A DNA stretch of 62,780 nt, the filler included, from Dugesia japonica (taxonomy: Eukaryota), in NCBI GenBank assembly GCA_001938525.1. It is 6 parts of 6 records of this genome, joined end to end, with 100 filler letters (N's around TTAATTAATTAA, not from the genome) between each part and the next. Parts side by side here need not be neighbours in the genome. Positions count along the whole stretch, not along the records: positions 53,195 to 62,780 come from MQRL01579262.1; 5 more parts are not named here. The stretch is one strand, 5' to 3'. Shown piece after piece: positions 4,940 through 62,780 of the stretch. The notes under the pieces were generated by a model. It was not told the DNA's origin. It was given only the letters and a program-made list of their open reading frames with translations, and searched no databases. Both the position numbers and the translations under genes were made by a program. Every line of letters starts with the position of its first letter. The stretch's first letter is position 1.

Positions 4940-5490
4940 TTTTAAAATATTATTTTTTAACGCGACATTTTTTCAGCAATTGCGGGGTTATTTTAGAACA
5001 TTCATTTGAAATGAATTCCATTAGTTGATCTTTATTGTAAGGGTTTTGTTTGTATACTTCAATTGTTAAGTAACTCCAAAGAAAAAAAATTTGGCGAAGC
5101 CAAGCCTTGGGATCGTAAATACCATGCAAGAGGACCACTCCGTCCGATCTCGAGTGATGGAAAATTTTCATTAATAAATCTCCGAACATCTACCAACAAA
5201 TGTGGAGGAGCTCCGTCTTGTTGAAACCAAGTCTTCTGTAACAGTTTCTTTCGTTTTAGTAACGGAACTAAAAATTCTTTTAACATATGTAGATAATCTT
5301 CTACTTTAATGATATCTTCTGGGAGAAAGTAAGGCCAAAAAAATTCAATTTCAGATATACCAATCCAGACATTCACTTTAAGTGAAGTGTGAACTTTAAC
5401 TGATTGAGCTGCATGCTTTTAGGTGTATAATATTCGACATTATGACGATTTACGACACCTTTAAGAAAAAACGTTCTCTCGTCAGAAGTA
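4940..5490 (-). pseudogene. Tc1/mariner-superfamily (maT/rosa-like) transposase fragment, frameshifted
   Basis: NVWIGIS, WFQQDGAPPH and IGRSGPLAWYLRSQGLASPNFF/LWSYL match the WPPRSPDLTPLDFFLWGYLK-type DDD transposase; split across ORFs 5059..5376 and 4950..5189. Confidence 0.85.
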
Positions 5491-6216
5491 CGATAGAATT
5501 AACAATAAAACAAAATAATCTATGGCAAATTCCAATAATCTTTTAGTCATTGAAAATGCATTTAAAAATTTCGAAAAATATTTTTTTTATTTATTTTTCT
5601 AAATACAATGTAAAAATTAATAAGCTCAATAGTTATATTTTATAATATGTGTTTATGTGATATTAATCAGTACTGATTTGGATAAATGGAAAATATTAGA
5701 AAATAACTAGCAAACAATTATATTTTATTAAATGAGAACATAAAACATTCCGTGTGTGACATATGCCCAACCCGAGTCCTTGGTATTTTATTTGAGTTTC
5801 TAAAAATAATGACTACCGAGTATAATTTAAACAGTAACACTTATACTTTATATATTACCAATTAAAATAATTAATCTACTGATTTATTAGTCTACTTTGA
5901 AATTGGTTTTAAATTTATGAATTTGTATTATTTATAATGTAATGTAATTGTGTGTTGAAAATGGGTTAAATTAGCCTATTTGGTGATGACTAGAATAAAT
6001 CATCTTATTTAAATTTGTAAAAAACAGTATCATGTAAAATTCACACTTGATAGGATTATGCCAAATTAATAGTGTATTATTGACTTTGTAAAAAGGAAAT
6101 ATTTAATCCAAGTCAATCATTCTAATAATTATTAGATATGCCAATAGCGATAAATTTTATAATTTTGTATTTTATCTCTGAAATCATATATTTATTGAAT
6201 TCACAGTAATTTCAGA

Positions 6217-8761: not shown

Positions 8762-9465
8762 CTGAGAAAATAGCTGGAGAATACACTTTGCAAATTATAG
8801 CATCTGATAAAACACTAATTAATGCTACTGGATATATATTTTGTAAGTTTTTGTTATTTTGTTTTTCTCTTGCTAAAATAACTATCGTAAAATAACTGAA
8901 AATATTGTTTTTCAGCTCCCCCGTTTCTTCAAGAATTTCAAGAATCAAAACGGTCTACCGAAGGTGGGAAAATAGAAGTTGCGTGTACAAGTTTTTCGTA
9001 TCCACTTGACTTAGAAGAACTCACCTGGAGTGAAGTAGTAAAACGTGAAGCAGATAAAAATTATAGACTTTCTAAGTCTAATAACAGTACCAAATTTTCT
9101 GATGTAATTGTATGGGATGTGCTAAATAAACGAGATGCTGGTTATTATAAATGTGAAGCTAGGAATAAATATGGCAACGATTCGGTTATTATGCAATTAC
9201 GAGTCAAAGGTGCGTTACAACTTTATCAAGATTTTTTAATTGATTATTCCCTTTTCTAGACAGACTAGCCCCATTGTGGCCTTTCATCGGGATTGTGATA
9301 GAAGTTATCATTTTACTTGCTGTAATTATATTTTACGAACGCAAAAAATCCAATACCAAAACTGAGGAAATCGAACAAAATCCAACGCGCCAATCTCTAC
9401 TTGCTGACACCAAAAGTTCAGAACTTAACGAAGGGGGACTCCGTCACAGAAATCCAGTTGATTAA
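8762..9465 (+). CDS. bsg: basigin/neuroplastin (CD147/EMMPRIN family) Ig-domain membrane protein; 3' exons 8762-8842, 8916-9209, 9260-9465; upstream exons not identified
   Basis: GT-AG introns 8843-8915 (73 nt) and 9210-9259 (50 nt), all phase 1. Spliced frame is open: EKIAGEYTLQI...SPPFLQ...VACTSFSYP...LTW...DAGYYKCEARNKYGND...[34 protein letters not shown]...LRHRNPVD*. LWPFxGIxxEV with an intramembrane Glu is the basigin-family hallmark. Confidence 0.92.
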
Positions 9466-12108: not shown

Positions 12109-12250
12109 GCGAGAATAATTGTTGGACATAACCATTGATCGTTTTAAAGAATTCATTTAATATAAAAGCTTTGATAAAAATTTTGGTTTTTTTATTGATA
12201 TTAGATAACAATTCGATATTTCGACCTTGTCTTCGTCAGGAAACTAATTG
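12109..12250 (-). mobile_element. Penelope-like repeat copy B with hammerhead core at 12209-12245 (minus)
   Basis: Minus strand reads agtttc-CTGACGA-aGACaagGTC-GAAA-tatc-gaattg; core intact, stem I partly decayed. Confidence 0.7.
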
Positions 12251-14054
12251 AATAATTTACCATCTCACTGTACGATAACTCAGTAGAAAACCCAAAGCTA
12301 TGATTCGCTAAATCTTTAACGGGACATAGAATTCATAAAATTTCTGTAATTCACAATTAGCGAACATTCTAGAAGAATTATTGTTTATTACTATTGCGTA
12401 GAATTCATCAAGAATCTCGTCAGTAATCTAAATTCAAAACTCAACACCTATTAATATCAGACAATCGGAATCCAGTTACACTCACCGGAGGAAATGGAAA
12501 GTCAATTTTATTTCGTTTTCGTTATAGAAACCCATGCAAGATAGTTTCATGCATGTTACAGAGCTTCCTATCCTCCGTTTAAATAGAAAAGAGCCGGGTT
12601 TTAGCATCTAATGATGTTCTCCTTCCCGTCTCTTCACGAATGATGCATGAGAATCAAGTCTGAATAGTTTATTTTGTGTATACATAATATAGTTTTATCA
12701 TAATCAACTATCGGCGATTTTATTTAATCCATACGGTATTTAAAAATTTAATTATTGCTCATTTAATCTTAAACATCATTTTCGACTCATGACCAGAAAT
12801 TGTAATCCGGATACAGTATTTAGTTTCACTATTTAATTTTAATTCTTTGTTGAGATCACATAACACACGACAGCATTACATACATAAATAAATCAAGCCT
12901 CAAAAGAATCAATACAGATCCAGAGTTTCAAAATAACAATCAATCATCAATCAATTTTATTTATTTATATAGGAAAACAACTACATGATATTACTATACT
13001 TATACGTTTTTGCTTAAATATATCAGATATATAATATTGTATCCACATACACACAGGGGTAAAATCAACACCCGTAAAATAACAAACGTATACTATTTGT
13101 TATAGTTATAAAACATGAACCATAAAATCACTTTGTTGAGTTTAAATACACAACATCTTTATATTTAATCATTAATGAATTTTTATTTGAATATGATATT
13201 TACTTTTAATTCTTTGTATTTAACAATTTATGCATTTTTATTCAAATTATGATGATCAAAATATTTAGTTTAATCGCTTCGCGGTTAGCCGTTTATGGAT
13301 CTTAAATTTAGTTGGGAGGTTTAATTTTGCAATTGAATTTTATATTCAGTGAACCATGAGCTTTAACCCTTGATATAATTTTATTTCTCTAAATTTTCAC
13401 TACAATAAGTATGGTCTTAATTGTTTATTTCTCGTTGCGATAGTCAATTCTAAATGACAGATCCAAATATTCAACAATCACCATGGTTCATAATGGTAAG
13501 GATTAAAAATTGAAAGTTTAAAGAAGAAAATGTTATAAAAGATTTAAAGAATTTTTTAAAATATTTAAAAACGTTTAGTATTTTAAAAAATTTGAAGATT
13601 TGAAATTTCGTTTCATAAATAAAAGTTTATTGAATTTAATGAACTTTTCGGAAAGTTTACCTGTAACTAACAATGAGGTTTAGTTTTGCACATTTGTTTA
13701 AATTTTCAGGAGCTCTGATAGTCAGATATAAATTCGATTAAACGTTTTTCACCAAATCAGGCGAGGCAATGACAAATTGACTTTAACCATTCTTAATAAT
13801 CACCGGGTATCCATGATTTTTATGCTAATAGTACGATAGCAAAATAAATTTTGTTATATCAATCCTGAACTGAATTATTCTTGTTAACTTCGTTATACTA
13901 GGAGTGCGATATTAAAATTTTGTTTTTATATAATCAATAATGATTTGGATGATTATTATCAAGATCATAATGTTAGTAATACGAGATTAATATTGGTCTT
14001 ATTATAATCAACGCTGATTTAGATCATGATTTTATAAAGACCGATTTTTTATAT

Positions 14055-16990: not shown

Positions 16991-18233
16991 ACGTAGGTTG
17001 TCTTTTAAGTTCTGCATATAGCCATAAAAATAAGACTAAAAAACTCAAAATGTTTTATTGCTTTTCAAAATATTCTCAACTAGATTAATACACACTTGCA
17101 TGCGTTAAAACTATCTGTTAAAACAATTAATGCACTCATCACATGTGACGGCCGAAATTTCCATCTACTGCCTCTTCCGGTGACTGAAACCGTTGATCAC
17201 AAAGTAATTCTTAATCTTACGGAACTTAAAGAAATCATTGGGACTCAGAAAAGTACTGTACGGAGGATGATCCAGTAACTCGATGTTTTGAGAAGCTAAA
17301 AATTTAGTGGTCATTCGAGCTGTATGTGAACTGGTGAATGATAATTTTGCGTCTCATGTTGGTTTTTCGGAGTACTGAAAATAATTCTGGCAGACAAACT
17401 GTTGTATACCAATGCAGTCTTTGTATTATGATTTTGCAGAGCGATTGCGGCGACATAGCATATTTTTGCGACAAAAATTGCCACCATCGTCTTTGACACA
17501 TTACGGGAACGGATAACTTTTGTTGGATTATCCTCATTTTGAAACACCTAAACAAAAGATTGAGGCTCGTATGAGTAAATCCAAAATTCGTCACCACTCA
17601 CAATGCTGTAGTTATTTTTTGAGCTTCGATTGTTAAACCTGGTCAACGTTTTTCGACACCAATTAACACCAGCCATTTTCTGTTATTTGGTTAGTAGTTG
17701 TGTGATCAAATGGGAAACTAATTTTTGTATACCCAATTCTTCATGCAGGATTTTTTGCTATGAGGTCTTTGAAATTCCAAAGTAAAACTCCGACCCACGA
17801 TATGTTGCATTTCAATCTTCCTTGATTAGATGACGCGAAGAATCAATATTTTATTTGATTACCACTGTTTTTGGTGCACCATTTCTTCGGTAATCTGTGA
17901 GATTAGAGCGTCCACGTTTATAGTTGCGCGGAATTCTCGACTAATGTGATACTTTATCCCCAAAAAGATAAATCATTTTGGATCGACATTGTTCTTAAGA
18001 TAATTTTCTTCGATAATTATAGAAAACTATTGCCCGAAAATTTTCTTTGCCCAAATAAATTTTTTCTGTTTATTCGGATTTTAAAATAAACACTGCTAAT
18101 AAATGAATCGATACATTTAAACAAAATATTGAATATCAATTACTTAAATATTGGTGTGTGCTTAAAATTCTCAAATTTTATTATCCGAAGCTTATATGCG
18201 GTCATATGCAGAACTTAAAAGACAACCCACGTA
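16991..18233 (-). mobile_element. mariner element with TIRs and decayed transposase
   Basis: TIR acgtaggttgtcttttaagttctgcatat (16991) vs atatgcagaacttaaaagacaacccacgta (to 18233); minus-strand SGDEFWIYSYEP, PTKVIRSRNVSKTMVAIF and EYFEKQ. Confidence 0.88.
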
Positions 18234-21099: not shown

Positions 21100-22810
21100 G
21101 ATGCACTAATCCAGTCTAAGTGTCTAATCAAAGTCTAATCAACTTAAGTAGTGGATCCAATTTTGAAACTGTGCCATTATAGGTTTCTTCGTATTTAACA
21201 TAAACGTAATTGCCTTATGTTCAGTTCGTAGATTGAATCCTCGCTCATATAAGTAGTGACTGAAATGGTTACAAAAATAGAATATCGACAGCAATTTCTT
21301 TCTAGTTATCCAATACCACAATTCGTGGTTATTCATTGCGTAAGATCCATACGCTATCACCCTTTCTATTTCCATTGTTGTCAATTTGTGATAATACAGC
21401 ACCAATTGTATTGTAGCTTACATCCGTATCAAGTATGAATTCTCTTCTGACATCCGGAAACACTAAAATTGGTGACTTCGTTACCGCTTCTTTCATATTT
21501 CTGAATGAATTTTCGCAACTGTCTGTTCATATTAACTTCCTATTATTTACACTGCATAGTTTTTCTAGTTCTCTAATCTTCTTTGCGTAATCCTTTATGA
21601 ATCTTCTGTAATAGCAACATATCCTCAGAAAACTCCTCAATTTTTACCCGCATTTTGGTCTTTCGTATGTCTGTATTACAACCAATTTTGCTGGATCGGT
21701 CTGTACTCCTTTATCACCTATAATATGTCCCAAAGGTTTGATCTCTTTTCTTTGCAATGGACATTTTGACTGGCTCAAACGTAGCCCTGTTTGATGTATT
21801 TTACTAAATACTACATCCAGTGTTTTGTAATGCTCTTCCAAGTTTTCTAAATATATTAAAATATCGTCTAAATACACAGTTGTTCCCTTTGTATTAGGAT
21901 TTAAATACTTCACGAGTTCCTAGAATGTCCCAGTTATATTGAAGCAGCATTGACCTGACTTTGTTGAGAAGGTTGTTTTATCTTTTGACTCTTCATCTAG
22001 GTCTACTTGATAGTAGGCATTACCTTAATCTAATGAAGTGAAGAATGTTGACCCACCCAATCTATCCAGAATCTCTTCGACATTTGGCATCGGAAATGCT
22101 TGTCTTTACGTAATAGCGTTCAGCTGTCAAAATCCAGGCAGAGATCAATGTCTTTCTTTTCTTTTTTCCTCATACATATCAGCGGGATGTCCCATTTTGA
22201 ATTGCACTTTCGTATAATTCCATTTTCAAATAAATAACGTACCCCTTCGTTTATCTTATCTTCTAAGTTCATAGATGTCTTCTGGGGCTTAAAATTTATA
22301 GATTCGCTTTTTGTTGCTATTTTATGTTTGACCAGTTTTGTGCATCCTATGTCCCATTTATCGGCCATAAAGATATTTGAATGTTTCCTTATCAACTCAT
22401 TGATTGTGTCATTTTTCAATTTATTTATTTCAATCATAGTCTTTTTGATATATTTCTTTATCTGTAATAATCCTTCCAAAATACGGCTCGATATTACAAA
22501 TCCGATCTTGATTATCTTTTCCTGCTCTATCTATCTAACTTAGTTCTAATCAAAAACTGATCTGCAACTCAATGCCACCAATTATGCTAAGGATTACCTT
22601 TTCCACAACTATAAAATAAAATCCATCTAGCCACATTGCCGATCCTTACTTACACCTCAATTCTTTATTTGGTACATAATGAACTATCGTTAGCGCACCG
22701 TAGTCTACCCTTGGTTTTTAATAACGGGACATCTTTGAATTTGTTAAGCACATCCATACCCATCATATTAATTCTTGCTCTGGTATTCAGTAGGCATTAA
22801 AACTCTATGT
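21100..22810 (-). pseudogene. Ty3/Gypsy pol remnant: protease, reverse transcriptase, RNase H
   Basis: CLLNTRARIN (decayed LLDTGA); WDIGCTKLVKHKI...LCLDF; TTVYLDDILIY...LGHII...VQTDPAK; RVIAYGS...LRTEHKAITF. Confidence 0.93.
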
Positions 22811-23366: not shown

Positions 23367-25967
23367 AGTTATATCATTTAAAAAATTATATAAAGTTTTA
23401 AAATTGTTATTATTAAATGATATTATTTGTTTAAATAATTCATTATTAATAAATAGTTTTTGTTTAAATAAATAATTATGTAAAGTTTAAGTCTTTTAAC
23501 TAACAACCACGCCAAAATAAGCGTATTGATGAAGAAAAAAAAGATGATCACCAGAAGATTTTTGTAAAGCTTCCATCTTCAAAACAAGAATTGCTTATCC
23601 CAAAATCAAGTTTCTTCGAGGATTCATCTGCAGCAGCTGATGAATGGGTTCAGATGACAAAATAATCTGCTGCGTTTAACTAAATGTAGCTATCATTCGC
23701 GTTTGATATGTTAATGAGACGAGATGAGAAATAATTATGGGTGGAAAATGCAAAGAAGATGTAATTTTGACGAACAAGATCTGCGGAAATGGTATCGTGA
23801 GTCATTTGTGATTTCAGAGACACTGGTGGATAAAATAACACTTTTATCGAAGATCAAACAAAATCCAACTGAAAAGTATTGTAATTTCGAATTAATACAA
23901 TTAGCGCTAAAGGTGTAGAGACAAATGATGAAACCATCAAAATAATTCAAGAAGCCGTAATGCCAAAATTCGCCACGGAAATACGAGGTTATTAGAATTA
24001 ACAAATTATTACATACGTTTCATAAAGTACTATGCTTTACTTGCAGCACCATTGTATATATCGACAACAGGACAAGAAAAGAACATTGAATGGACAAAAG
24101 AATGTGAGGATAGTTTTCAATTTTTGACGATAAAATTGCTCTGATTTTGACTTTCCTAAATAACAGTGGCGAAATGATATTTGATACTTATGCTAGTTTT
24201 AGAGCAATTGGAAAGGTTTTGAGTCAAATAACGAATAATGGATTGGGACGGGTCATAAAATGTGGTTCTCAAACTTTAAACAATCACGAAAAATGATATT
24301 GTGTTACTCACAAGAAATTGTTAGCTCTGCATGAGTTTATGATGTATTTTAAACATTATTTGTACGGCAAGAAATTAAGAGCAAGAACAGATCATAAAGC
24401 ATTAATTCTTATGACGAAGACTAGTAAGCCCATTAGTTCTCAGTTTCAAACACGGATAGCAAATCTAGCAGAATTTAATTTCAATCTAAAATTGCGAAAA
24501 GGAGCAGCTCATAGAAATGCTGATGAACTTTCAAGGATAGGAGCGAGTCTTTGTACCCAATGTTTAACTATACATCAAGATGCCAAAAGGGAACGATCTC
24601 GAGTTAAAAGCATCAACACTTTAGACAAAACAAACTTTGATAGAAACCATATTAAAGAAGTACAGAGAAACGATCCAATAACATGAGAAATCATTGAATA
24701 TATTGAAAATGGAATGATAAATAATAAGCTGAGCACAATGATGACCAAAAGCAAATATTTTTCCATACTTGATTATCAATGAAAGATACAAGAAAAGAAT
24801 AATACTGACAGGAAAATCGATACCCGACCTTATAGATTTCATACACGATGAGTAATGTTATGTCAGAGGTCAAAAATTGACGGAACATTTGAGTGTAAAT
24901 TATATTTAAAAAAACGCAAAGAAATGTAGAACATAAACTAAAAAAGTTTATGATATGTAACATGCGTAAAACTTACACTGGGTGAACAAAGAAAATTCTT
25001 ATTCCAAGAACAGAATTTGAACCATTAGAACAGGTTATTATGGATATCGCTTACTTTCCAGAAGTGAAAACCAAAAGGAATTATGTTCTCGTCTTGGTTG
25101 ACAGGTATAGTATGTTATTGTCATTCGTAGCGTTAAATAGACAAGATGAAACATCGGTAGTTGAGGCAATAAAGGAAAACTGGGCATTAAGTTTTGGTAA
25201 GCCAAAATCATTTTTGAGCAACAGACCAAAAACGTTTTAAGGAAAGTTAATGTGGTCACTTGCAGGGTAGTTTGAGATTCAATAACATCATATTCCACAT
25301 ATCAACATCAATCTAACGGTTTAGCAGAAAGAAATATTAGAACACTGTGAGATATGAAGGTAACAACAATAACGAATGGCTGCTCGAAATCAGGTTGGGA
25401 CAAATTACTTCCACGAATTCAGTTTGTTATGAATGCAACACAAAATATCGATTGGCTCATCTCCTTTTATTATATTTGGAAGAAGAATAGTCTAACACGG
25501 ATTGACACAAGAAGGAAATCTGAAACACGAAGAAAAAAAAACTGGCAGATGAAAATTTACAGAAAAAAGCTTAATAATTAAAAAAATACGAATGTGAAAA
25601 GCGAAAGTCCAGACATTTTGAAAAAGGAGAAAAAGTATTAGTGAAAGTAGACCCGCAAAAGTTAAAGAAAGAAGGTTACGGATATGAAGGTACTTACAAA
25701 ATTAGTAAATTTTTAAGTTCACATCAAGTTTTATAGGTTATGCAAGACTGCTTAAACCCAGAAGACTTGAATGGCTGAAAAATATCGAAAATGAAAATTA
25801 GTAAGAGAAAAGGAGAGAGAGAGCAGTTATATAACATTACTAAAATGATATAAAGTTTTAAATTCTTTATTATTAAATCTCATTATTTGTTTAAATAATT
25901 CATTATTAATAAAAAGTTTTTGTTTAAATAAATAATAATGGAAAGTTCAAGTCTTTTAACTATAACA
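23367..25967 (+). mobile_element. internally deleted Ty3/Gypsy element with two ~140-bp LTRs (23367-23507, 25825-25967)
   Basis: Direct repeats starting AGTTAT; PPT aagagaaaaggagagagaga before the 3' LTR; gag remnant jumps to RNase H (FKHYLYGKKLRARTDHKAL...HRNADELSR) and integrase (MDIAY...VLVDRYS...HQSNGLAERNIRTL). Confidence 0.9.
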
Positions 25968-26779
25968 AAATTTGGAAACAACATCCATTTACCACAACTT
26001 GTATGTAATACTTTTTATTATAGTTAAAATATCATGTATAATTGTTGTATGAAAATAAATGTATTATGAAAGCCTATTATTTTAATTGATATATACTAGG
26101 AAAATTTAACAATAATAATCCTTGGTAAAAATATCATAGTGAAACTCTAGCCGCTGGTCATACAAAAATCAACACATCAGTCAAAAATAATTTAAGTCGG
26201 TTGAAGTGAGTGAACCAGGTAAGATGGGTATAGATGAGTCAGTCAGATTAAATTTGTTCAGGTGAGTAGGTCAAGTAAAATGAGTTTAGGTAAAAATAAA
26301 TCAGTCAGTCAAAAGTGGTTGACCAGCAGAAGGGTTACTGGTCAGCTGTCTTAGAGTGCTCACAACTATCTACTATTACTTATTCCGACACTCAATTTTA
26401 TTAAAAACTAAATTTTTCAAGATTTTTAAAGTAAAATTTCTTAACTTTGCCGTAAAGAGGGACATACATTATTTTTATTTGTTTTTATAGTGTAATTTGA
26501 CCTCGTGAAAGTTACCACCTGCTAATTTTAAAATGTTTAATGCTAATTTTTTATTTTACTACTACAAACTATATTTCATAAGATAAATAATTATAAAATA
26601 CAAGTATTTAAATATTTAAATATCTCAATTCCTATTGGGTGAGATTATTAATTAATAATTATTTCCTCATAAACCATTTATTCACTTTATAAGAAAACCT
26701 AAAAATATAAGTTAATTTAATATTTTTAAAGCATTGAAGAAATCAAAAGGTTCAAGGTTGATGGCGCCAGCCATAATAG

Positions 26780-26845
26780 TTTTACAATTACAAATATTGC
26801 GAGAACAATGGTTAGACTTAACCATTGATCGTATTTTAATGAAAG
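26780..26845 (-). mobile_element. Penelope-like repeat copy C (tail only)
   Basis: ttttacaattacaaatattgcgagaacaatggttagacttaaccattgatcgt matches the family tail. Confidence 0.65.
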
Positions 26846-27516
26846 GTTAATTTAATTTAATATTTTTAATTTTTGGATTTCTAATTATGAACTTAGTGAA
26901 TAGATTTCTCTAGGTTTCTGAAATGAGATCTACTACCCTTGATAAATCATAATATGTGAATATATAGAAATAAATTATCAAACGTTTTCAAAATTGTTAT
27001 GAATGAAATATTTAAACAATAACTTTCATAAGGAATTATTCTACGAAACAAATATTTGATGTATAATCGTTACGGTTAATTTAAACGTTTTTCGAATTTT
27101 AAATTCTATAATTTTTTAATTTATAACTGAACTTGAAGTAACATAAAGTTATAACTCCATGTTAAAGTTGTTGTGAGCACGCATGAGATCATTAAGAATT
27201 GTGTGCCATTTGTCGTATATTTTCTAATTTCTTCTTTAAAACCTTTTTGTATAATTAGCTTGAATTGTTAAATATTTTTCATTTATTTTTTGTAAAAGTT
27301 AATAACTTAATTTCATACCTTAATTTTTATTATAATTAATTTGTATTTGAGACTGGCATTGTAAATTTCTAGTATAAATATTCAATTATGATTATTATCA
27401 AAATTCCCAGATGCTGACAATAAATATGTGCTTTTCCTATTTCACAGTTTGCTACACGATAACTTACAACACAGCTTCAATCTAATACGATTAATTGCAA
27501 AATTAATTGCGGTAAC

Positions 27517-39600: not shown

Positions 39601-39843
39601 GTGAATTTATTTTTGATGAATTTCTTTTATTAAAATTTTTCAGAGTTGACACAAATGCTTAACATAGTGTGAAATTTAGTTAAAATAAAAAATTATATCA
39701 CGAAAACTATATTAATACCAAAAATAATTCATCTGAAGGACAATTGCGATTATTGCGAGAATAAATGTTAAACGTAACCATTGATCGTGTTTCAGAATTC
39801 ATTAAAATTAAAGCTTTGATTAACATTTGTTTTTTCTATAATT

Positions 39844-39880
39844 CAATTCTATATTTCGACTTTGTCTTCGTCAGGAGTTG
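39844..39880 (-). ncRNA. minimal type I hammerhead ribozyme, opposite-strand partner
   Basis: Minus strand CAACTC-CTGACGA-AGACAAAGTC-GAAA-TATA-GAATTG; one stem I mismatch. Confidence 0.7.
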
Positions 39881-39897
39881 ACTTTTTGAATTGAAGT

Positions 39898-39934
39898 CAA
39901 TTCCTGACGAAGACAAAGTCGAAATATAGAATTG
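39898..39934 (+). ncRNA. minimal type I hammerhead ribozyme (Penelope-type)
   Basis: CAATTC-CTGACGA-A-GAC(aaa)GTC-GAAA-TATA-GAATTG: perfect 6-bp stem I, CUGANGA and GAAA cores, 3-bp stem II, minimal palindromic stem III. Confidence 0.75.
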
Positions 39935-41549
39935 GTATCAAAAACCAAAAAAACAAATTTTGATCGATGCTTTCATTTTAAATGAAATCTGATGGATTTC
40001 TGATTTTTTTTCATAAAAATAAAAAAGATTAATTTTAATTTTCTTTAGAAGTATAAACTGGTTTTCAATAATAAACGGAAATGAATTTGTTTTTCAATTC
40101 ATTTTCTCCTTTGATCATCTAATTCCATCAATATATATATATAGAACAGCAAAATTTAAAGAGAGATTGTAAACGAGACAATAACAAATCCATTCGAATA
40201 AATTCATTATGCTCGTTTACACGTATCAGCCTGTTTCTTTTCATTTAAATTGCTGAGATGAAAAGAATCTGCTGCTTGTTCCATTAAATACAATCGTATT
40301 TACTAAATCATGAAAATTTAAATTTTCTAGATTATTTGAAAGTCTTTTTATTTAAGACCTTTTTTTAAATTTATAAGAGCTATAATAAGTACGTGCAGGA
40401 GTAATAATAAAGGGAAATAACTATCCATGACAATTCTGATTTCAAATTCAGATCTGAAGAAATCTTTTAGAAATTCTTGAGAACCAAGAAAACAGACCTT
40501 TCTGGTAATAAAAATAAAAGACGTAACAATAGTAAAAAGTAAAAAAAATAAAATGACAATAGATGTTTTGAAAAAAGAAATAAATAATAAATCACCACCT
40601 TTCAAACCATTTCATATTGCTTAATAATAATCTTAGGTTAAACCATTCTAGATTTCATATTTATAGTCAAAGTAATGAGGAAAGGCGTTTTTTCCCCAAA
40701 GAAATGTTTACATTTAAATAAATAGATTAATTCGTTTTCAAAAAAAGTTAAGTCAATAATTGAAAACCTAAAATTCTAGTTAATTTCTGCAATCTAGAAA
40801 AAAGTCAATTCTGTTATTAGAAAAGAGAAAGAATTTCTTTCATCAAAGGTTGCACATCGATTTAGTTAATGTGCCAAATAAGCTCAGTAAATGCGACGCC
40901 AAATACTGGTAATACGCAAAATATCGGAAATCAAAATCCAATATCTATGAAATGATTACAAAGAAAATTAGATGGAATAAGAATATCATCCGTAAAATCT
41001 GTAGTACTCAAACATATCGAGCTGTTTTCAGACATTGAACACCGTACAGAGTTTTATGGATCGTTCAAATGCTAAAAAGTTGCTTACAAAAAAACACTGA
41101 TATGACAAAAATTATTAAGTAAAACTTGTTCAGGTTTCCATGATAAGAAAACCCAAATTTANAGTTAATAATTAAAATAAACAGTTCGAAGGATNAATTT
41201 GTAAAAAATAGCAAATTATTCTAATTAGTCTTCTCAAATCAGCCTAATTTTAATAAACCAGGTTTAAAGTGAACATTTCTGACAAAAAGACACGAAAATA
41301 TAGATAATTTTGCTTCCAGAAAAATGATATAATTTCCTCAGTTATATCAGATTATTATTTAAAATATTTATAAATTAAAATAAATTTTCAAAATAAAACA
41401 AAATTTTATCAAAATAAAATTAGAATTTTTAATAGGTGATTTTATATTAAGTTGCTGGATTCTCTTTTTTATTTGAATTTTATCTCTATTCTTGTTTAGT
41501 TGATTCAACGAAAGACATAATTAACTTCTAATATTTTTAATCTGATTTC

Positions 41550-45379: not shown

Positions 45380-46850
45380 TGCTGCACTATTCTACTACTC
45401 TGCTGCATTTCCAAAAGACATTCTATTGAAACAATATTACCCTTGTTTGGTCGAAAAAGCTGCCTTCTCTTGAGAATCTACACCAAGTTCCACTTGATAA
45501 TATGCGTCTCCTAAGTCTATTTAGCAAATATATTCTGTACATTTTAAAGCATCCAGCGTTTTGTCCACATTTGGCATAGGAAAAGCTTGTCTTTCTGTTA
45601 TTGCATTGAGTTGTCTAAAGTCTAAGCATAATCGTAAATCATTTTTTTCCTTTTCCTAAACGCAGATTAATGGCGTATTTCATTGATAAATTGATGTCTG
45701 GATGATACTGTTGTCATATAGAATCTTTATGGCCTTTTTAATCTTCTCTTCTGTATTAATTGGTTGACGATAAGGTTTTATGTTGATTGGATCTTCTTTA
45801 GTGATTATTCGATGCTTCGCTAAGTATGTGCATGCAATGTCTAATTTGTCCTCCATAAATACATCCTTATTATTCTGAATAATCGCAGTCAATCTATGAT
45901 CATTGGTTATTTCTAGAATCTGCATCACATGTCTCAATCGTTCACCCGTCTGTATTTGCCTTCTAAATTTCGCCTCGATGTTGCAAACAAATCTTTCTAT
46001 CCTGCACTATTTTTGAAGATGAAACTCAAAAGTATTCTGAAATTCCACTTCACTAATTAGATCTGGGATTAGTTTCTGTACTATTATAAATGTTACTTCC
46101 TTGCACACGCCTGAAACTACAACTTACACACGTGTGCCCATAACTCTGGCATGTTCAACACTGTGATTTTGTTCTTTTTGTGTCTCTCTCGATATTTTGT
46201 CTCTTCTCTCCGGTACGTTCTGCAAGTTTTACATCTGCGTAACTCTTTACAACGTTAATAGATTCTCTTCCTTCGATTTTTTCTACTAATATGTTTCTTT
46301 TATATCTTATACTTTCTCAGGTTTTTGCATGATTATCTCTTTTTTTGCTTTTCATTATCTGCACAAATTATTAGCATTTTTAATAAGAGTTTTTTTTTCG
46401 ACAGCTCTCTATTTGCTAAACTTTTATCGACTAAATCTTGCACTATTTAAAGAACACCTCGAGTTCTTCATCACCAAGATTCTGCAAATCTTTTATTACA
46501 TCTCTCTTGCTCTCAAAAGCTAATTGCAATCTCTCTCGATTTCAGTCCGCTTTCTTCAATGTTTTCACACATGCTTTCATTAAATCTTCACCAAGCATAA
46601 AATGTCATCAAACGCTCCTGTTCTTTCGTTATAACGATTTTCTTCGCCTCAAAGTATATTTCACACCGTTTAATAAACTTCTCTAGATCATCGCCTCTGC
46701 CAAATAATTTTGGCAACAGTCTCTCTGTGATTGCATCGGTGTTTACCGCTGCCACCATGTTAGATGAGTATGAAGTACTCATCGGATCATTGATGTCAAA
46801 ACTCATTTCCATAAAAACTTTATTCACAAAACAAAACCATATCAAACACT
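45380..46850 (-). pseudogene. Ty3/Gypsy gag-protease-RT remnant
   Basis: LLPKLFGRGDDLEKFIKRCEIYF (gag); DIACTYLAKHRIIT...PINIKPYRQP; LRLCLDFRQLNAIT (RT). Confidence 0.9.
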
Positions 46851-49069: not shown

Positions 49070-49965
49070 CCTTTTTCTTCTTTGTTTAATTTACTATTTA
49101 CGATGTTGATATCCATATTGAATTTTCATAGCTATGCTACTTTACACATGATTGTTTATCCTTTCCTATTCTTTTTGACCATATAATCTTTTCTATTATA
49201 AATACTGTATATTGTGGAATTACTTATAACTCTTGGTCAATGAATTTTCCAACAATGATAATTTCTTCATGATCTTTAATCGCATATATGATGGGTTTCA
49301 GTTTGATGTTGATTTTTGATATTTAAAACTCTTCATCAATTCAATTACTATTGAAATTCATGATGAATAGTGAAGCTTATATTTTTGAGATTCTAACTTC
49401 TTCACCAACTTTATATTTTAATTTCTTGTTTGATTTTGGTTGTTGTTTAAAAGCCATAATTTTAATAAATTATCAGCTAATGTATCCACGGGTTTTGCTC
49501 TTTTTAGTCCCTTTTATGATTATAACCATCGATTAGTTTTGCTAATACATGTATTCAGGTCTTATTACCAATATGTACAAAGTAAGCTTTCAATTCATCT
49601 CTCAATCTTCGATTAAATATTTCTAAATATGGAGCTTTGTACTAAGAAAATACAGAAAAATAGTTTACTTTGGGGTGTAAAATAATATTCTTGACTTTTG
49701 AGTTGAAAGATTCCTCACCCAAATAAGTTTGCAAATTGTTTGAATATGTTGAAACATTGACTTAATCGCAGTTTTCATTTCATTAGAATATTTAGTTTTA
49801 CAGAAATATCTCTTGAAAATCTGCTAAATACTTGTTAAAATATACTTTTATCCCTTATTAAGTCTCAAAAAAGGTATCATTTCCATCAAACTCATTTGCC
49901 ATAAATCATCAATATCAAATGTTTACTCGATATAATGTCGACTTTTACAACGACTTGGTATGAAG
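49070..49965 (-). pseudogene. Polinton/Maverick retroviral-type integrase + chromodomain remnant
   Basis: DIDDLWQMSLMEMIP, KYILT, EIFNRRL, KYKVGEEVRISK, PIIYAIKD...GKFIDQEL, FIIEKII; many stops and frameshifts. Confidence 0.85.
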
Positions 49966-50249
49966 CACAACGGTTTATGTTGGAAAATCCCTGTTAAGAT
50001 GAGAATGAATTTATTGATTAAAATTATCTTTTCTAATTGATAATTTATTTCCATTAATGTTTTATTCATGAACAATTATATATTGATAGTAACAAGGTAT
50101 TCATTATCATTACATCGGGACAACTATTGATTTATTATTATCATCTTAATTGTTTTCAATTCCAGATTAATAACTTTTAATAGCCTTTTAATAAATATTA
50201 TAAGGTTTTCCATACTGTCTGGGTCACCCAGGGCCCAGTTCACATGTTA

Positions 50250-50550
50250 CCCTACACGTTCCGATATTTCGCGACATACAAAACGTGCGTAAATTGTAGT
50301 GTTGCATTATGTGTAGAAGTGTGATTCCGCCGGTTTTCCGAGGTATTCCAATCATTTAGACGTCTTCATTATTCATGGAGCTCTGTTCCTCACACCGTGT
50401 GCTATCGACTAGAACAAGCATTAATGCGATAGAGAAATGTCTGGTGACTACGGCGGGTCGAGTAAGACTTCGTATTCCAGCTTTTTTACAATTTCTTCTA
50501 CCAGTTTGCAGCATGAGCTCGAGTGTTGTCATGCTGTGAGTTCTTGACTT
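50250..50550 (-). pseudogene. mariner (Mos1-like) transposase fragment
   Basis: Minus-strand QHDNTRAHAA / KLEYEVLLDPP*SPDI...IAHG. Confidence 0.8.
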
Positions 50551-51039
50551 AATTTAAATATTTTATTTTATTTTATAAATTATTTTTACCAACCATTCAA
50601 CTGGACTAATAAATAACACGAATTATGCTCCAGATTTTAAGAATTATATGAAAAATATAATGAAATCAGGTGTAATTTGTTGATTTTATGAAATGTCCAC
50701 TTTTTATTCTATTTATTATTAAAAATGTATACTTTTTATTCTAATTATTATTAAAAATGTATACTTTTCACATAATTTAACTTGTGAAATTTGAATTTAT
50801 GTCTTTAATTATGATTTTATTGTTTCCTTTACGATTAATTTGATGACTATTAATTAATGATGAATTAAATTTTTGATGATTAGTTTAATAAATACAATTA
50901 ATTTAATCACAAATTTAATGTTATCAATTTAAATTTGATACTTATAAACCTTATCATGGATCAACAAAAATAAAGTACTTGCTTTTTCAATTTACTTAAT
51001 CAAAGATAAAGATTGTTGTAAATTTTGAACAATGTTTCA

Positions 51040-51285
51040 AATTTCATTTAAAATTAAACCCTCGATCAAAAAAATTTTTTGTTGGTTTTTTGAGATTGAC
51101 TTGATATTTCGACTTTGTCTTCTTGAGCAAAATAGTCAATTCCTAACGAAGACAAAGTCGAAATATTGAATAAATCTCAAAAAACAAAAAAATTTATTTT
51201 TGGTCGAAGCTTTGATTTTAAATGAATTCTAACGATCAATGTTTACGTCTGACAATTATTCTCGCAATAATTGCAATTGTAAAAT
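51040..51285. mobile_element. palindromic Penelope-like repeat copy E with mutated hammerheads
   Basis: caattc-CTAACGA-agacaaagtc-GAAA (51137 onward, core G>A), inverted partner at ~51100-51125 and family tail. Confidence 0.75.
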
Positions 51286-51299
51286 GTTTTAAAAGTTTG

Positions 51300-51440
51300 T
51301 GTCATTTTCAACGATAATTAAAAAATTTATGGAAATTTTCAACGATGATTAAAAAGATTGTGGATATTTTGACTAGTTTTAAAAAAGTTCATGTAAATTA
51401 TCAATGATTTTCAAAAAGGTCTAGTAAATTTTAGAATGAT
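51300..51440. repeat. 31-bp tandem repeat (~4.5 units)
   Basis: Units like ttttcaacgataattaaaaaatttatggaaa; inverted related copy at ~56697-56830. Confidence 0.75.
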
Positions 51441-51978
51441 GTTCCCATTCCCATTCCCATGATGTTCCCTATGTACATAGGATTTTGAAACAATTATTGA
51501 CTTTTATGAAATTTCCGATTATTTGTAATGAATACTGTGTAATTTCATATAAATTTTATATATTAATATGTAATTTCATAGAATCTGTATCGACTACTAT
51601 GAAATTTCAGATAATTTTAAAAAAACTTACTAAGAATGAAGTGAAACTTAGTTTAAATAATAAATAATTGAATAGGTATTACTTGCTTGCCCCTGTGTTA
51701 GTCTAAGTGTTGGAAATATCAATAAATCCTAGTGGTATCTACTTACAACAATTGTTTTATTGAATATATCTGGTTTATTGGTTTTATATTCAATGATAAA
51801 ACCAATAATTTAATGATAAAACCCATATTTTCAGGATAATAACCATATTCATATAACATGTATTTTCCATTAAACCTTAATTCTCAATGTTGAGATGAAG
51901 TAGTTTTAATGATGAATCAAGCATTTTCTATGTTAAACTATTATTTTCTAACAATGTAAGTCTAAATAAACCAATTTT

Positions 51979-52138
51979 AACATTTGGTATTAATGATTTA
52001 TGGCAAATGAGTTTGATGGAAATGATACCTTTTTTGATAATTAATAAGGGATTAAAGTATATTTTAACAAGTATTTAGCATATTTTCAAGAGATATTTCT
52101 GTAAAACTAAATATTCTAATGAAATGAAAACTGCGATT
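51979..52138 (+). repeat. inverted duplicate of Polinton integrase segment 49764-49923
   Basis: Near-identical ~160-bp reverse complement. Confidence 0.9.
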
Positions 52139-53094
52139 TACGTTTCAGTAAACAATCCAAAGAAAAAAGAAATCAATAAAACAAAATTAAAAAGATATTA
52201 GACAAATAAATTGGATTCTTTCTCTTAAATTATTCTAAATTGCAGATATATAAATTTTCAACCGAAAAATAAAATAAAAAACAAAATTTTGTTTTAATTT
52301 TTCAATTGATATTCACAAAATATATTTCAAATTAATTTTACAAAAATATTATTTTCACAAATTCCAACAAATATTTATAAATAATTTTAGTTTTAAATTT
52401 TGTTGTTATCAAATATTGATTTTGCATTTGATTAGCATTTGATTATTTAGGATTACTATTTTTGGATTATTTATTTGATGGAACAAAATTAGATCATTTC
52501 TTCCTGTTGGTTTATTCCATCCTCGATAATTGGGATAATCATCTTGTTTTACTGTTTCACTTGTATCAACCCGTCCATTCATCTGATTGAATATATCAAT
52601 TGTGATGGCATGCTTGAATGGCCGCAAAAAATCTTTATCAAATTCTCCTCTCATTAATAGAAAACAAACATTAACAAAATCATAACCAATCCACACACTC
52701 AAATACATTATATACAATATCATAAGTTTTAGAGTTACACTATTTAATATTGTAACTTTTTTATTATTAAAAATTTCTGTATTTTTTTATTTTTTTTATG
52801 TAAATTAATTTTTAATGGTTTTTAATAATTATTAAGTTAACATTTCTGTTATAAAGTATATATATATATGAAAAATTTTAGATATTAAATCAGAGAAGAA
52901 ATTATAATAATATTACCTATATTAAACAACTTTTAATCGTTAATTTACCAACTAATTTGTTTCAATTCCATTTAATACATTTATTTTAAAATTTATTTTT
53001 AATTTAAGATTATCATTTTTCTAATACTTTTATTGATTATACTATTGATTTTTAAAAGAAAATTTTGTTTTCAAGCATTTTTCAGGAAATTTTT

Positions 53095-58005: not shown

Positions 58006-60952
58006 AATAAAGTAAATATAGTCACTAATTATACTGCATTTATTTTATATATAGTCCTTTAATATGCTTCTTTTGTTTATGTTGTATCCCTTCTCACTTA
58101 ATTTTCGACCATTTTCTCCGACTTTTAGTCATTTTTTTAATTTTTTTTTTTCACCATTTAATCTAATTACTTAATTTCTACTTATTTTCCAATATTTACC
58201 TTTATTTAGTCATATTTGTAGTCATTTTTCAACATTTACCCTATACATCTATATTTTTCTCTAATTTTTGTTGGATCTTAATCTTTTAAATAGTAACATT
58301 TAAAGATAAAAATAAACATTAAGACTTAGTGATGGTGAGAAAAAGCTAATATGACACGTTTCTTATTTAAAATAATATAATAATTTCAATATATTTTAAT
58401 TGTCTGATAATCCGATGAGTCATAAAAAATTTTTAAGGGTTTGTGATGAGTCATACAGTACCCCTAAATTTTTTGGGGGGTTTCATGGGGTACCTCCAAT
58501 TTTTTTTAGAAAATTTTGTTTTTAATTTTTTTTTAAATTTTTTTTTATATATTTTTTTTTTAAAAATTGTTTTTTAATTTTTTATATAAATTTTTTTTAT
58601 AGATTTTTTTTATAAATTTTTTTTATAGATTTTTTTTTAAAATTTTTTTTTTTTAATTTTTAAAATTTTTTTTTGTCTTGCCTATTTTTGAAATTTTATT
58701 TTTTAATTTTTTTTGTTTTTCGATGAGTCATACTTTTCTCGAAAATTTTTCTATGTCAGAACAAAGACATCATATCCCTCCCTAAAGATTTAAAGAGAAA
58801 ATTTATTGACTCAATCTATCCTGAGTCAAATAAAAAATGATGTTAATTATGTTATTAAAATTAATGTTAATAAATAAATTTTAGTTTACTAAATTGTTTT
58901 CTTTTTTTTATTAATCATTATAGCAAAAATGTTTTATTTTAACAAAAAAAATTATAAAAGTTTATTCCCAAAAAAAAATTAAAAGACACAAAATATATTA
59001 TAACTGACTTGAAAACATGTCACTTGTATCAGTCATCTCATTAGGATTCTAATGAAATCAAGTTTAATACAATTTAACAGAGAAATGATATCAAAAACTT
59101 TTTTTTAAAAATTTGAAAGTTCTTTGTTCTTTGTTTTTCAATTTCCTTGTAAAGCATGCATTTTTTGATATGGGTTCTTTAAAGAATAAATAGGTAGTTT
59201 ACATTTCTCTATCGATTTTTATCAAAATATTTTCAAACATTTTATAATTTCGTGTCTATACATGGTTTTTTATATTTAAAATTTAAAATATTTAAAAACT
59301 TCTCACCAATACGTCAGATTGAAATTCGGTGATAGTACTAATGTCCATTATCTAAATACAATTCCAACGATACCAAGTTTGTCACCATAGCATGTATATA
59401 TGCGTTTTAAATTCAATTTTTAAAATTTAAAAATGTCTTTGTGATAGTGCGCCACTATCTAACTACTCTAACAAAACTACATTTTTAACTATAAAAAAGC
59501 GTTTTTTGAATATAGTCCTTTAAGCAATGTATATATACTTATGAGATAACCAGAAGAATCTAAAGTTTCAGCGGAAAAAAATCAGAAATAAGAAATTCAA
59601 AGAAGGAAAAGAGTAATAAAAGCTTTTATCAGAACAAAGAAAATAACGAATAGAAATTAGTTCATTAGGCAAAATAAGAAAATCATGTTGAGTTAGTTAT
59701 TAAAGAAAGAGAAAATTATTTAAATGAATTAAATAGTGGAAGAAAAACGACGAAATTAAATTAATTCTAGACCAGAAAATAAAAATGAACATTAAATTAA
59801 TATTTAAGAAGAAAATAAAATAAATCATATGAATTAAAATGATTTATTTTAAAGAAGAGAATTAAATTTTTACAAAAATTAGAAAAATGAAGGTTTCTAT
59901 CAATTTAAAATTAACAGTTAAGATAATTAATGTCAAGAAAAAATCTGGGAGTTCAAAGTTAAAAAATCATAGCGAGACTAGGAAAGAAGATACAAGAGTC
60001 TGAAGGTTGACCAACCAAACGATAAAAAATGAAAAATTAACATACTTACTTGAAAAGTTTTTAAATAAAAATGAAGACATTTATCAAATAATAATTTTAA
60101 AACAAATATATTTTGAAATTAAATTGAATCAAATCTAATACAATATTAATTTAAAATAGTAGATAAATTANNNNNNNNNNNNNNNNNNNNNNNNNNNNNN
60201 NNNNNNNNNNNNNNNNNNNNNNNNNNNNNNNNNNNNNNNNNNNNNNNNNNNNNNNNNNNNNNNNNNNNNNNNNNNNNNNNNNNNNNNNNNNNNNNNNNNN
60301 NNNNNNNNNNNNNNNNNNNNNNNNNNNNNNNNNNNNNNNNNNNNNNNNNNNNNNNNNNNNNNNNNNNNNNNNNNNNNNNNNNNNNNNNNNNNNNNNNNNN
60401 NNNNNNNNNNNNNNNNNNNNNNNNNNNNNNNNNNNNNNNNNNNNNNNNNNNNNNNNNNNNNNNNNNTATTAGGTTCATGAATAATTCGTTAGAATTTCAA
60501 TGAATGAAAGAATAAATTTATATTACAAGTTGATGCTTAATTGGTTAATTAACCACATTTGAAGGTCCATTGTCAAAGAAATTTTTATATTAAGGTTAAA
60601 GTATTTGAATAATTAACCAGTTATTAATTGTAAACTATATATTCAGTGTGAATTATAGGGCTGTCCGAACTTATGCACCTCAATAGAAAAGTAGACACCG
60701 CAGTCACTATGAAAGATATAGCCAAATAATGAGGCATATGTGACATTTGGTACCAAGAAAATTAAAATAAAAAGGTTTATGGGCAATATAAGTTTATAGT
60801 GGAAAATACTATGTACGATAACATAGCATTAGAAGAAGGGGGACAAGAACTCTCGCTATCAATTACCAAATAAATATATAAAATATATATATGTATATAT
60901 GAATATATGTGTAACTATGTATAACTCTTATTAATTGTTTTCTTTTTAGAAA

Positions 60953-62038
60953 ATGGATCCTGAATTAGCCGCAAGAAAGATTCATTTACGCAATACATGT
61001 AAAATAATTCTATATGAAAAACATCGCGTCCTAAAATACCCATTAAATTACGGTTAGGATAATGTAGGTAAGATTATTTACTATTTATCCGAAGATGCTG
61101 AATGCCCTATTTGTTACGAATACCCAGAAATGCCACGAATCTTCGAATGTGGACATTATTTCTGTTTTAACTGCATACTCAAGACTTTCATTCTCTCCAA
61201 TTAAAATCTAGTCCCTTGTCTAGTTTGCTGTTCATGTAGAGTAGATGCTTTCCATCCTAAAAGAGTGTCCTTCATAAAGATGCCACCCCTAAAAATAGGA
61301 CAACAGCTTAGTATGATATTAACCCTCAAAGTTCCCTTCAATAACTGCACAAGAATTGCACATCACCTGCCCCTATATTATCAAGAAGATATTCTCAAAT
61401 TTGGTGACCTGGTTGGTAAATATAATAATATTACTATTCAGAGAGATGTCCTCTCAATCAGCCAAATACAGAATGACCTGTGCACAACCAGAATAACAAA
61501 TCACCCGAAAAGGGATAAAGACAATATGCTGCTACGCCTCAACAACGAATTAAGAAGATTCAACAACAGAATCAAGATACAAGACATATTCGAATTCGTC
61601 AAAAGTTTCTGCAACAATAAAAACGCTTCCCAATTCAACCTCCTCCGCCACTGAGATATATTGTCACCCCAGCTATATTACCAAACTGACCGTTATCATA
61701 ACCTCTACATTAATTATGAACAACAACAGAAAATACTCCAATCATCAATACTTAAAATACCTTACGAATTCGTGGTAGAAAAAAAATCAATAAAAACAGA
61801 AATTGTACAGACCTGTCATTCAGTTTTGTACACAGGGCAAAGAATCATTATCATCTCAATTGACATTATTCGTTCTATGGTACTTGAAAATCTACCCAGA
61901 TACGCAACCCTGTTTAAACATTATGATGAAACCTTGAGAAAAGAAAAGAGAGAACAACTGAAACTAAAAAAGATAGCTAATCACTGTAAACAATCGAAAA
62001 AAAAAGAACCAAAAATTTATAACTTGACCAAAAAATGA
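60953..62038 (+). pseudogene. divergent intronless RNF10/Mag2-like C3HC4 RING E3 ligase with in-frame stops
   Basis: One frame from ATG 60953: LRNTCKIIL...YG*DNVGKII...ECPICYEYPEMPRIFECGHYFCFNCIL...PCLVC...KIGQQLSMIL...LYYQTDRYHNLYI...LRKEKREQLK. This parallels RNF10 (ANCQF...WDFVEQV...CPICLYPP...CGHIFCWACIL...VGDTITMQL...FYQAEDGQ...coiled coil). Stops at 61055, 61202, 61652, 62036; no frameshift; tttttAG acceptor 3 nt before the ATG. Confidence 0.7.
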
Positions 62039-62198
62039 CAGCCCTTAGAAAAATTCTCAAGACCTACATCTCCATATCCCACTTTACCACAAATCGAAGA
62101 GGAATTTAACCCATGTATATTTAATGAACCCTGCAATAATCAAATACCCTCGGGATTAGACGATATGGGCTGTCCATGCTTTACCCTATTTCTTACTC

Positions 62199-62420
62199 AA
62201 GATGCGGGTGCATCTTCTTTCGGAAGGGGGACATTTGTTGGGGAAAACCAAAATCCAAATATGACATTCACATGAACACACTCAAAACAACTCGCATGCA
62301 CACATACAAACATAATCAGAACATCCAGCACCTCAACTAACCTACCCAAGATCAACAGAGAACAACAATCAGAATCCAAGATCATTATTCAATTAATTAG
62401 TGATCAACTCCCAATGTGAA
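62199..62420 (+). mobile_element. putative hairpin + polypurine tract (62222-62231) + LTR start (TGTTGGGG at 62236)
   Basis: AAGATGC-gggt-GCATCTT hairpin, then ttcGGAAGGGGGAcatt|TGTTGGGG, the usual Ty3/Gypsy 3' junction layout. Confidence 0.55.
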
Positions 62421-62780
62421 CAATTAATTTGACTATTAATCTGATCAATTCCAAATGTGAACAATTTAATTTTAATTTGTGATTTGAATTTTCAACATTT
62501 TTTTATTTTTATAATATTGTAAAACAATTTTATTCTTATGTAAAATTTCAACATTTTATTTTTAGAATATCGTAAATATGAAAAATTAGGGATTCGAACA
62601 TTTATGTGAAATTTTAAAATATTGTAAATAATTTGTGAATTTTATAATTGATTTCGATGTTGTAAATAATTCGTGAACTTTATAATTAGAACTGATTTTG
62701 ATAACGTTTATAATTTTTCGACAATTTTATTAATAATTGTCGTTTAAATATTAAATATTTATAATTATTGTTGTAATTCT

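Follow-up and report, generated by a model that had tools for sequence, protein, structure and literature searches.

The last part of a 62,780-nt stretch of Dugesia japonica DNA (assembly GCA_001938525.1; this whole stretch is called the window below) carries a dead, decaying copy of an intronless gene derived from RNF10, the RING-type E3 ligase that is called RNF10 in animals and Mag2 in yeast. A first-pass annotation had described here an intronless, frameshift-free RING frame in the env-like position of a putative Ty3/Gypsy retroelement with long terminal repeats (LTRs). The features of the locus, including those around its open reading frame (ORF), are as follows, in window coordinates:

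60467 to 60658, no strand assigned: very high-copy repeat forming the 5′ boundary of the element remnant, outside the RING unit and adjoining a gap
60665 to 60870, + strand: upstream element sequence whose depth (206-490) resembles that of the ORF, perhaps the decayed end of an ORF that came before
60926 to 60949, + strand: splice-acceptor-like site, with a pyrimidine tract at 60938-47 and AG at 60948-49, 3 nt 5′ of the ATG
60953 to 62264, + strand: RNF10-derived ORF, ~436 codons in the family, with stops here at 61055, 61202, 61652 and 62036
61103 to 61228, + strand: C3HC4 RING (aa 51-92) with all eight ligands, interrupted by an in-frame stop at codon 84
61241 to 61987, + strand: RNF10 core C-terminal to the RING, comprising a beta segment, a YYQ segment and the beginning of the charged helix, recognized by a post-RING profile
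62114 to 62173, + strand: C-x5-C-x12-C cluster (aa 388-407), a predicted zinc finger
62199 to 62243, + strand: hairpin, purine run and TGTTGGGG (codons 416-431), more likely coding than the start of an LTR
62265 to 62640, + strand: repeated, indel-rich sequence after the ORF, probably non-coding (3′ untranslated region, spacer or diverged LTR)

From the ATG at 60953 the frame runs through 488 codons to 62416 with zero frameshifts, and it holds 5 stops (codons 35, 84, 234, 362 and 441) against ~32 expected, a number as low being reached in 0 of 5000 shuffles. The absence of frameshifts in the first-pass annotation is borne out, but the frame is not intact, as five in-frame stops break this copy. 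A 316-nt contig with zero differences spans codon 362 and shows its stop to be real DNA; at that position (62036) 10 contigs, amounting to 205 of 228 in depth, differ from the window copy. Because all contigs aligned at the codon-35 stop differ from the window copy, that stop may be private to it or an assembly error; the two further internal stops are not among the contig differences shown. Most copies differ from the window copy at 40 listed in-frame positions, which fall 15/16/9 on codon positions 1/2/3 (these are the best-supported positions, several hundred others being left aside), and this lack of a third-position excess fits neutral decay. No indel is listed within the frame and several are listed after it; the contigs reaching 62261 all show a one-base length difference there, and the next stop of the window copy's frame beyond 62264 is at 62273. 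The frame of the family most likely ends near codon 437, beyond the proposed junction motif considered below. The acceptor-like AG claimed 3 nt before the ATG is present with its pyrimidine tract; counting both strands, the window has 3 instances of this pattern of tract, AG and ATG.

By profile comparison, the RNF10 ancestry of the frame reaches past the RING. The RING itself (aa 51-92) matches Pfam PF00097 with E 5e-6 (26.7 bits, cut-off 21), and a Pfam scan of the frame gave no other domain above cut-off. An exhaustive protein search with the frame returned 107 matches, the best being P0002 (445 aa; E 1.9e-16 over aa 13-342) and the top named ones RNF10 of Opisthorchis, Leptotrombidium, Elysia, Calicophoron, Trichobilharzia and Hypsibius. 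Word-index protein searches gave no match (0 of 2373 and 0 of 235 candidates), PDB sequence searches matched RING domains only, and scans of viral contigs and genome contigs found no relative of the frame. From 48 of the 107 matches an RNF10 profile was built, and its post-RING part, cut out for the test, scored 11.4 bits (E 8e-6) over aa 102-173 of the window frame, with 0 of 300 shuffles as high, in a comparison that leans in favour of similarity, its members having been chosen by the same query; on P0002 this profile gave E 4e-15. Alignment with hhalign to host RNF10 covered only aa 34-133, starting ~17 aa before the RING, and a pre-RING host RNF10 profile gave no significant match (E 0.11 and 0.16), the long N-terminus being absent. 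A profile of the family of intact relatives described below reached 26.8 bits on aa 97-233 of the window copy (0 of 500 shuffles as high). When the alignment of that family was compared with one of host RNF10s, the probability was 99.9 (E 2e-36) over 280 columns, and an Atlas structure search with a model of P0002 had RNF10 in its top row, with TM 0.61 over aa 1-325. Similarity to RNF10 outside the RING is thus found both in the window frame and in its relatives.

A search with P0002 and the window frame yielded six more intact proteins from metagenome and read-assembly contigs, making seven intact intronless relatives of 404-446 aa (six of them 44-51% identical to P0002); of 450 alignment columns, 107 are invariant. 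The window frame aligns to the seven-member family alignment (A4) over aa 11-398 with an hhalign probability of 99.6. All seven relatives keep all RING ligands, the Pro of CPxC and a Lys after the last Cys, positions important for E2 activation, and they have in common with the window copy a short N-terminus, the region before the RING being cut to ~50 aa. Near the C-terminus, all eight sequences (seven relatives and the window copy) carry C-x5-C-x12-C, with N-x- before the first Cys, whereas this spacing occurs in the C-terminal half of 0 of 118 other proteins and arises in 0.27% of 20000 shuffles (0.01% with a preceding [FY]N). A His stands four residues after the third Cys in 7 of 7 relatives, with Thr in the window copy. 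For the Cys cluster there was no Pfam CCCH family among the matches listed, and an Atlas search with the Cys/His tail gave no usable match.

In a FastTree phylogeny the window copy is sister to the seven-member family (support 0.95), and we treat it, from its sequence, as a distant member or sister lineage of that family; the branch leading to the family has 2.8 changes per column. The same method joins the family to trematode-type RNF10s (0.91), as does a quick mixture tree without the window copy (92); the mixture tree that includes the window copy left this link open, and a flatworm donor of RNF10 is not established by these trees.

The window locus is plainly one of many diverged copies. 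Copy number was judged from public sequencing runs of the same species label, whose contigs were aligned to the window; summed contig depth is not equal to copy number, and the dispersal of copies over chromosomes is outside the scope of such data. DNA run X4 covers 60665-62700 (2036 nt) with 628 contigs, of which 53 are at least 99% alike, 80 fall in the 95-99% class and 495 lie below 95% (183 at 90-95% and 312 under 90%). Over many single positions 16-28 distinct contigs are aligned, mostly 80-95% alike and several with internal deletions, and runs X1 and X3 behave like X4. The locus is therefore not a single-copy host orthologue.

At the 5′ side, the assembly gap at 60171-60466 is confirmed, and the adjoining repeat at 60467-60658 has a summed depth of 1e5-8e5, compared with a few hundred beyond 60700, with loose ends behind 60658-59 in all 3 DNA runs and in an RNA run. 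RNA reads on this repeat are mostly from one strand. The ~200 nt that precede the acceptor recur with the ORF, as seen in the depth and in one contig each in X3 and X4 that joins 60832 to 61962; in this part (60665-60870) no Pfam match was found in the three + frames, nor any similarity to the pol frame of L001, the DNA around one of the relatives. Behind the ORF, indels lie at 62261-62498, a 225-nt contig of depth 66 covers 62413-62639, and diverged RNA reads occur at 62261-62355. The RNA reads aligned number 141, 11 and 13 from X13, X12 and X16 (25%, 6% and 25% of each run), none of which is 99% alike to the window copy; they show that relatives of the window copy are transcribed at a low level.

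The tie to a Ty3/Gypsy element comes from L001, a 6071-nt piece of DNA, which is the only case among the seven relatives in which the surroundings were seen. Its ORF at 2-1804, open at the 5′ end, matches the integrase of Ty3 Gag-Pol (E 8e-14), and the RNF10-like ORF begins 250 nt after this integrase frame, with an AG directly before its ATG. In L001, an RNF10-derived ORF is thus carried behind a Ty3/Gypsy integrase. The proposal that a retroelement captured an RNF10 paralogue is accordingly supported, through this relative only, but no pol is linked to the gene in the window; we are fairly confident that the lineage of the window copy rides the same kind of element. Downstream of the integrase of L001 an acceptor-like AG precedes both ORFs. 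The RING gene had been placed last in the element, but in L001 it is followed by a 717-aa ORF (3723-5876), a second accessory gene lying 3′ of the RNF10-like ORF behind its acceptor-like site. This 717-aa ORF gave no Pfam, PDB or viral-contig match, and its part-fold (pLDDT ~35) found nothing in Foldseek at E <= 0.001. Beyond the integrase, the ORF at 2-1804 continues in the same frame through a signal-like hydrophobic stretch (aa 247-265), a beta-rich presumed ectodomain and a transmembrane segment (aa 533-551), which amount to a membrane protein fused behind the integrase. The single-sequence fold of the ectodomain had a pLDDT of 34.5, and Foldseek gave no match for it at E <= 0.001. The 717-aa ORF (ORF4) may have some likeness to a DEDD exonuclease and the ectodomain to fibronectin III domains, likenesses that no Pfam or PDB match supports. 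An LTR pair for the RNF10-derived gene was found neither in the window nor in L001, both of which end too early to exclude one.

A hairpin, a purine run and a TG dinucleotide within ~200 nt of the ORF had been annotated as the polypurine tract (PPT) and LTR junction of the element. The motifs do exist, since GGAAGGGGGA stands at 62222-31, followed by four other bases and by TGTTGGGG at 62236-43, and a 7-bp hairpin lies at 62199-62216. However, the purine run and TGTTGGGG are codons 424-431 of the RNF10-derived frame, and the 111-nt region of the hairpin is not more stably folded than shuffled sequence (z -0.35), 71 of 200 shuffles doing as well. It is because of the codon-362 stop that the junction only looked to be ~200 nt downstream of the ORF, and the segment after this stop holds the conserved Cys cluster of the family. 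Codons 424-431 are probably coding sequence rather than a PPT/LTR junction, because they are in frame, the codon-362 stop is not shared, depth falls and L001 has another ORF at that place.

The alternative, that the RNF10-like ORF is the last gene, with 62222-31 as PPT and a 3′ LTR starting from TGTTGGGG (62236) and overlapping the last codons of the ORF, is improbable on this evidence. It can draw on the fact that the window, counting both strands (125 kb), has a single G-rich purine run with TGT behind it, that the variants listed inside the run (62223 and 62230) change purine to purine, that the match of one contig stops at 62241 and 3 contigs diverge behind 62248, and that the relatives end 23-25 aa past the third Cys of the cluster, near where the TG falls here. 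Against this, summed depth drops across the site (4637, then 831, then 279), whereas 5′ and solo LTRs would raise it. No site is listed where many molecules begin, there is no loose end before 62236 in the best 9 of 195 entries, and the four bases before the TG stand outside the purine run. The window holds no second LTR for 62236, and neither AATAAA nor CCCCAACA occurs downstream of the junction; L001, moreover, is without TGTTGG and has its further ORF there. The 3′ LTR of the first-pass annotation is hence not supported; the conclusion that an element captured RNF10 is largely borne out, though the junction motif that carried it is probably coding sequence. The 11-mer GAAGGGGGACA is found both at 60835, upstream of the acceptor, and at 62223, within the putative junction, which may be chance. 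TGTTGGGG at 18884 and CCCCAACA at 28621, taken as candidate LTR ends, do not make a pair.

We give a probability of about 0.62 to the following reading of the locus as a whole: it is a dead copy of a many-copy, intronless RNF10-derived gene that likely sits behind a Ty3/Gypsy integrase and is likely spliced, with a retargeted 40S ligase as the predicted product of its intact form. Env-type third ORFs of such elements are expressed by splicing. Intact copies would be transcribed together with the element and probably splice into the acceptor AG at 60948-49, making a protein of ~436 aa, and this protein, to go by its sequence, is quite probably an active E3. The retained RNF10 core would then engage the 40S subunit, with uS3 and uS5 being ubiquitinated, and the new Cys/His finger, replacing the RACK1-docking tail, would direct the ligase to those ribosomes that sit on the long RNA of the element itself, or there would be competition with host RNF10. 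This combination of 40S engagement through the core, uS3/uS5 ubiquitination and a finger in place of the tail is put forward tentatively, at somewhat less than even odds. That the whole core is kept argues for a kept 40S surface, and that the tail is lost argues for changed targeting. Host RNF10 ubiquitinates uS3 and uS5 on stalled 40S subunits and needs its RING to do so, and its overexpression degrades 40S (passages of PMC11604940 and PMC12008924). As a full scenario, it is rather unlikely that an endogenous retrovirus-like Ty3/Gypsy lineage, probably of flatworms, captured RNF10, swapped its tail for a zinc finger and uses the spliced product to ubiquitinate 40S, thereby tilting host ribosome quality control to the advantage of its RNA.

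Several results weigh against parts of this interpretation. As to the ribosome as target, the RACK1-docking motif FPx[LF], searched in strict form, occurs in 0 of 7 relatives and not in the window copy, compared with 10 of 42 hosts, a weak test given that only 10 of 42 hosts have it; the [ST][FWY]A motif occurs in 1 of 7 relatives and not in the window copy, compared with 31 of 42 hosts. In human RNF10, the FPxF motif that docks RACK1 is needed for full uS3/uS5 ubiquitylation, and the S-x-A motif is not needed for full activity, as parts of a recent preprint report (bioRxiv 10.64898/2026.08.26.747346). A YPTL in the window copy is a relaxed match to FPx[LF], such as 15% of shuffles give; as a lead only, the sequence SSFGRG may correspond to the host SFA motif. 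As to the element, no pol, gag or LTR is linked to the RING ORF in the window, where the gap and the other repeat cut the element, and the link through L001 is that of 1 of 7 relatives, at 27% identity. The splicing into AG 60948-49 that had been predicted finds no junction read listed among the 141, 11 and 13 RNA reads, and in two of the three RNA runs the 5′ end is not covered by any read. As to membership of the family, a mixture model (IQ-TREE) gives the sister link a support of 73, with long branches joining; without the family in the tree, the row of the window copy goes elsewhere; and the family profile scores 98.5 bits on the window copy and 97.6 on a host RNF10. Taken alone, aa 234-361 of the window copy are not significant against the family profile (470 of 500 shuffles), nor are aa 363-440.

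Other explanations share part of this evidence. In one, the same capture served another job, the ligase marking a host restriction factor (for instance a silencing protein) for degradation or drawing off E2 enzymes or host RNF10 as a decoy. It is well known that viruses use RING ligases to destroy restriction factors, and the loss of most RACK1-docking motifs, the gain of the Cys/His finger and the length of the branch leading to the family (2.8 changes per column) would all suit such a role; the keeping of the whole RNF10 core over 280 aligned columns goes the other way, as it suggests that the substrate surface still matters. We consider this explanation possible but doubtful, and rank the retargeted 40S ligase slightly ahead of it. 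A further possibility, to which we give little credence, is that the copies are a family of host retrogenes or passive cargo, in which case retrocopies of RNF10 spread by duplication or with a non-LTR or DNA element and are unrelated to the L001 link. The lack of a linked pol in the window, an upstream boundary formed by an unrelated high-copy repeat and the weak tree link to the L001 family would agree with it. However, the derived N-terminus and Cys cluster are common to the window copy and the integrase-linked family, the flank on the 5′ side recurs along with the ORF, and many copies at 80-95% identity with internal deletions resemble a decaying element family; a plain retrocopy would, moreover, not be expected to have an acceptor before its ATG.

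Compared with RNF10 and Mag2, the family has the same order of a C3HC4 RING followed by the RNF10 core and charged helix, but it differs in being intronless and of many copies, in its length (~440 aa compared with 500-900) and N-terminal region of ~50 aa, in the near loss of the SFA and FPxL tail motifs, and in its new C-x5-C-x12-C-x3-H cluster. The capture of host enzymes by LTR elements (GDSL, DEDDy, AlkB, MATH) is already known, and what would be new here is RNF10 as the cargo. Bdelloid LTR retrotransposons carry GDSL and DEDDy enzymes, cargo other than env, as a third ORF (ORF3; passages of PMC5408684), in a paper from which the word RING is absent, and an orchid Ty3/Gypsy element carries an AlkB demethylase (passages of PMC9289625). 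The arrangement is similar, with a host enzyme as a separate ORF of an LTR element, lying downstream of the integrase in L001; the difference is that the cargo here is an E3 of ribosome surveillance and that L001 has at least two accessory ORFs. The giant planarian Ty3/Gypsy elements Burro/GYPSM1 likewise have domains tied to ubiquitination (MATH and Ubi2/SUMO-like), but these extra domains of Burro lie in or upstream of one polyprotein, and in the sections available of the source RING is named only within the AIR1 label and no RNF10 is named in Burro, a comparison made by description only (PMC6431247). There is no evidence for a tie between the RNF10-bearing element and Burro.

Errantiviruses of Platyhelminthes, with a GAG-ENV-POL arrangement, are again flatworm Ty3/Gypsy elements, and their description, in the portions available, names no RING, RNF10 or accessory ORF (PMC13524379); the RNF10-bearing element is known without its env and reverse transcriptase (RT), as L001 starts inside the integrase. 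In six Smed entries of that source no LTR was called within the extracted 14.5-18 kb (same portions of PMC13524379), which leaves room for genes behind pol. Passages of PMC8532177 and PMC12823453 contain nothing on RNF10. No report of RNF10 in a mobile element was found in listings of the open-access literature, Repbase and subscription papers lying outside the search, and the family is apparently undescribed.

With its RING and core kept, its tail lost and a finger gained, the family amounts to a natural truncation experiment on RNF10, whose mode of 40S recognition is stated to be unresolved (in passages of PMC11604940); no structure of RNF10 came up in the PDB sequence search. If the interpretation is true, retroelements act directly on ribosome surveillance. 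The value for such questions lies in the intact relatives, the window copy being dead.

The window contains further repeats and frames. Its decayed Ty3/Gypsy pol pieces (RT, RNase H and integrase-like), at 21142-22530 (-), 24297-25527 (+) and 45683-46006 (-), lie 15-40 kb from the RING ORF and are unlinked to it; the second set lies between the copies of a 136-nt direct repeat (23367 and 25825; 88%). An open frame at 52412-52786 (-) has a MATH domain (Pfam E 2.4e-5) and may be a TRAF-type exon or element cargo, as Burro carries MATH, and a frame with an immunoglobulin domain at 8900-9256 (+; Pfam Ig_3, E 2.5e-6) is probably a host exon. The pieces at 5062-5418 (-) and 17307-17597 (-), which gave no Pfam match, we presume from their motifs to be Tc1/mariner transposase-like, and the latter is enclosed by inverted arms of 33 nt (16987 and 18204). 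Five pairs of 44-N gaps (10721, 20006, 32096, 41550 and 53095), the members of each pair 12 bases apart, are likely a masking or assembly artefact. Finally, an element at 49764-52138 has 160-nt inverted ends that are 96% complementary, with one palindromic repeat inside, and a fold-back repeat family is present in five copies (193-394, 12109-12253, 26773-26897, 39740-39992 and 51037-51285).

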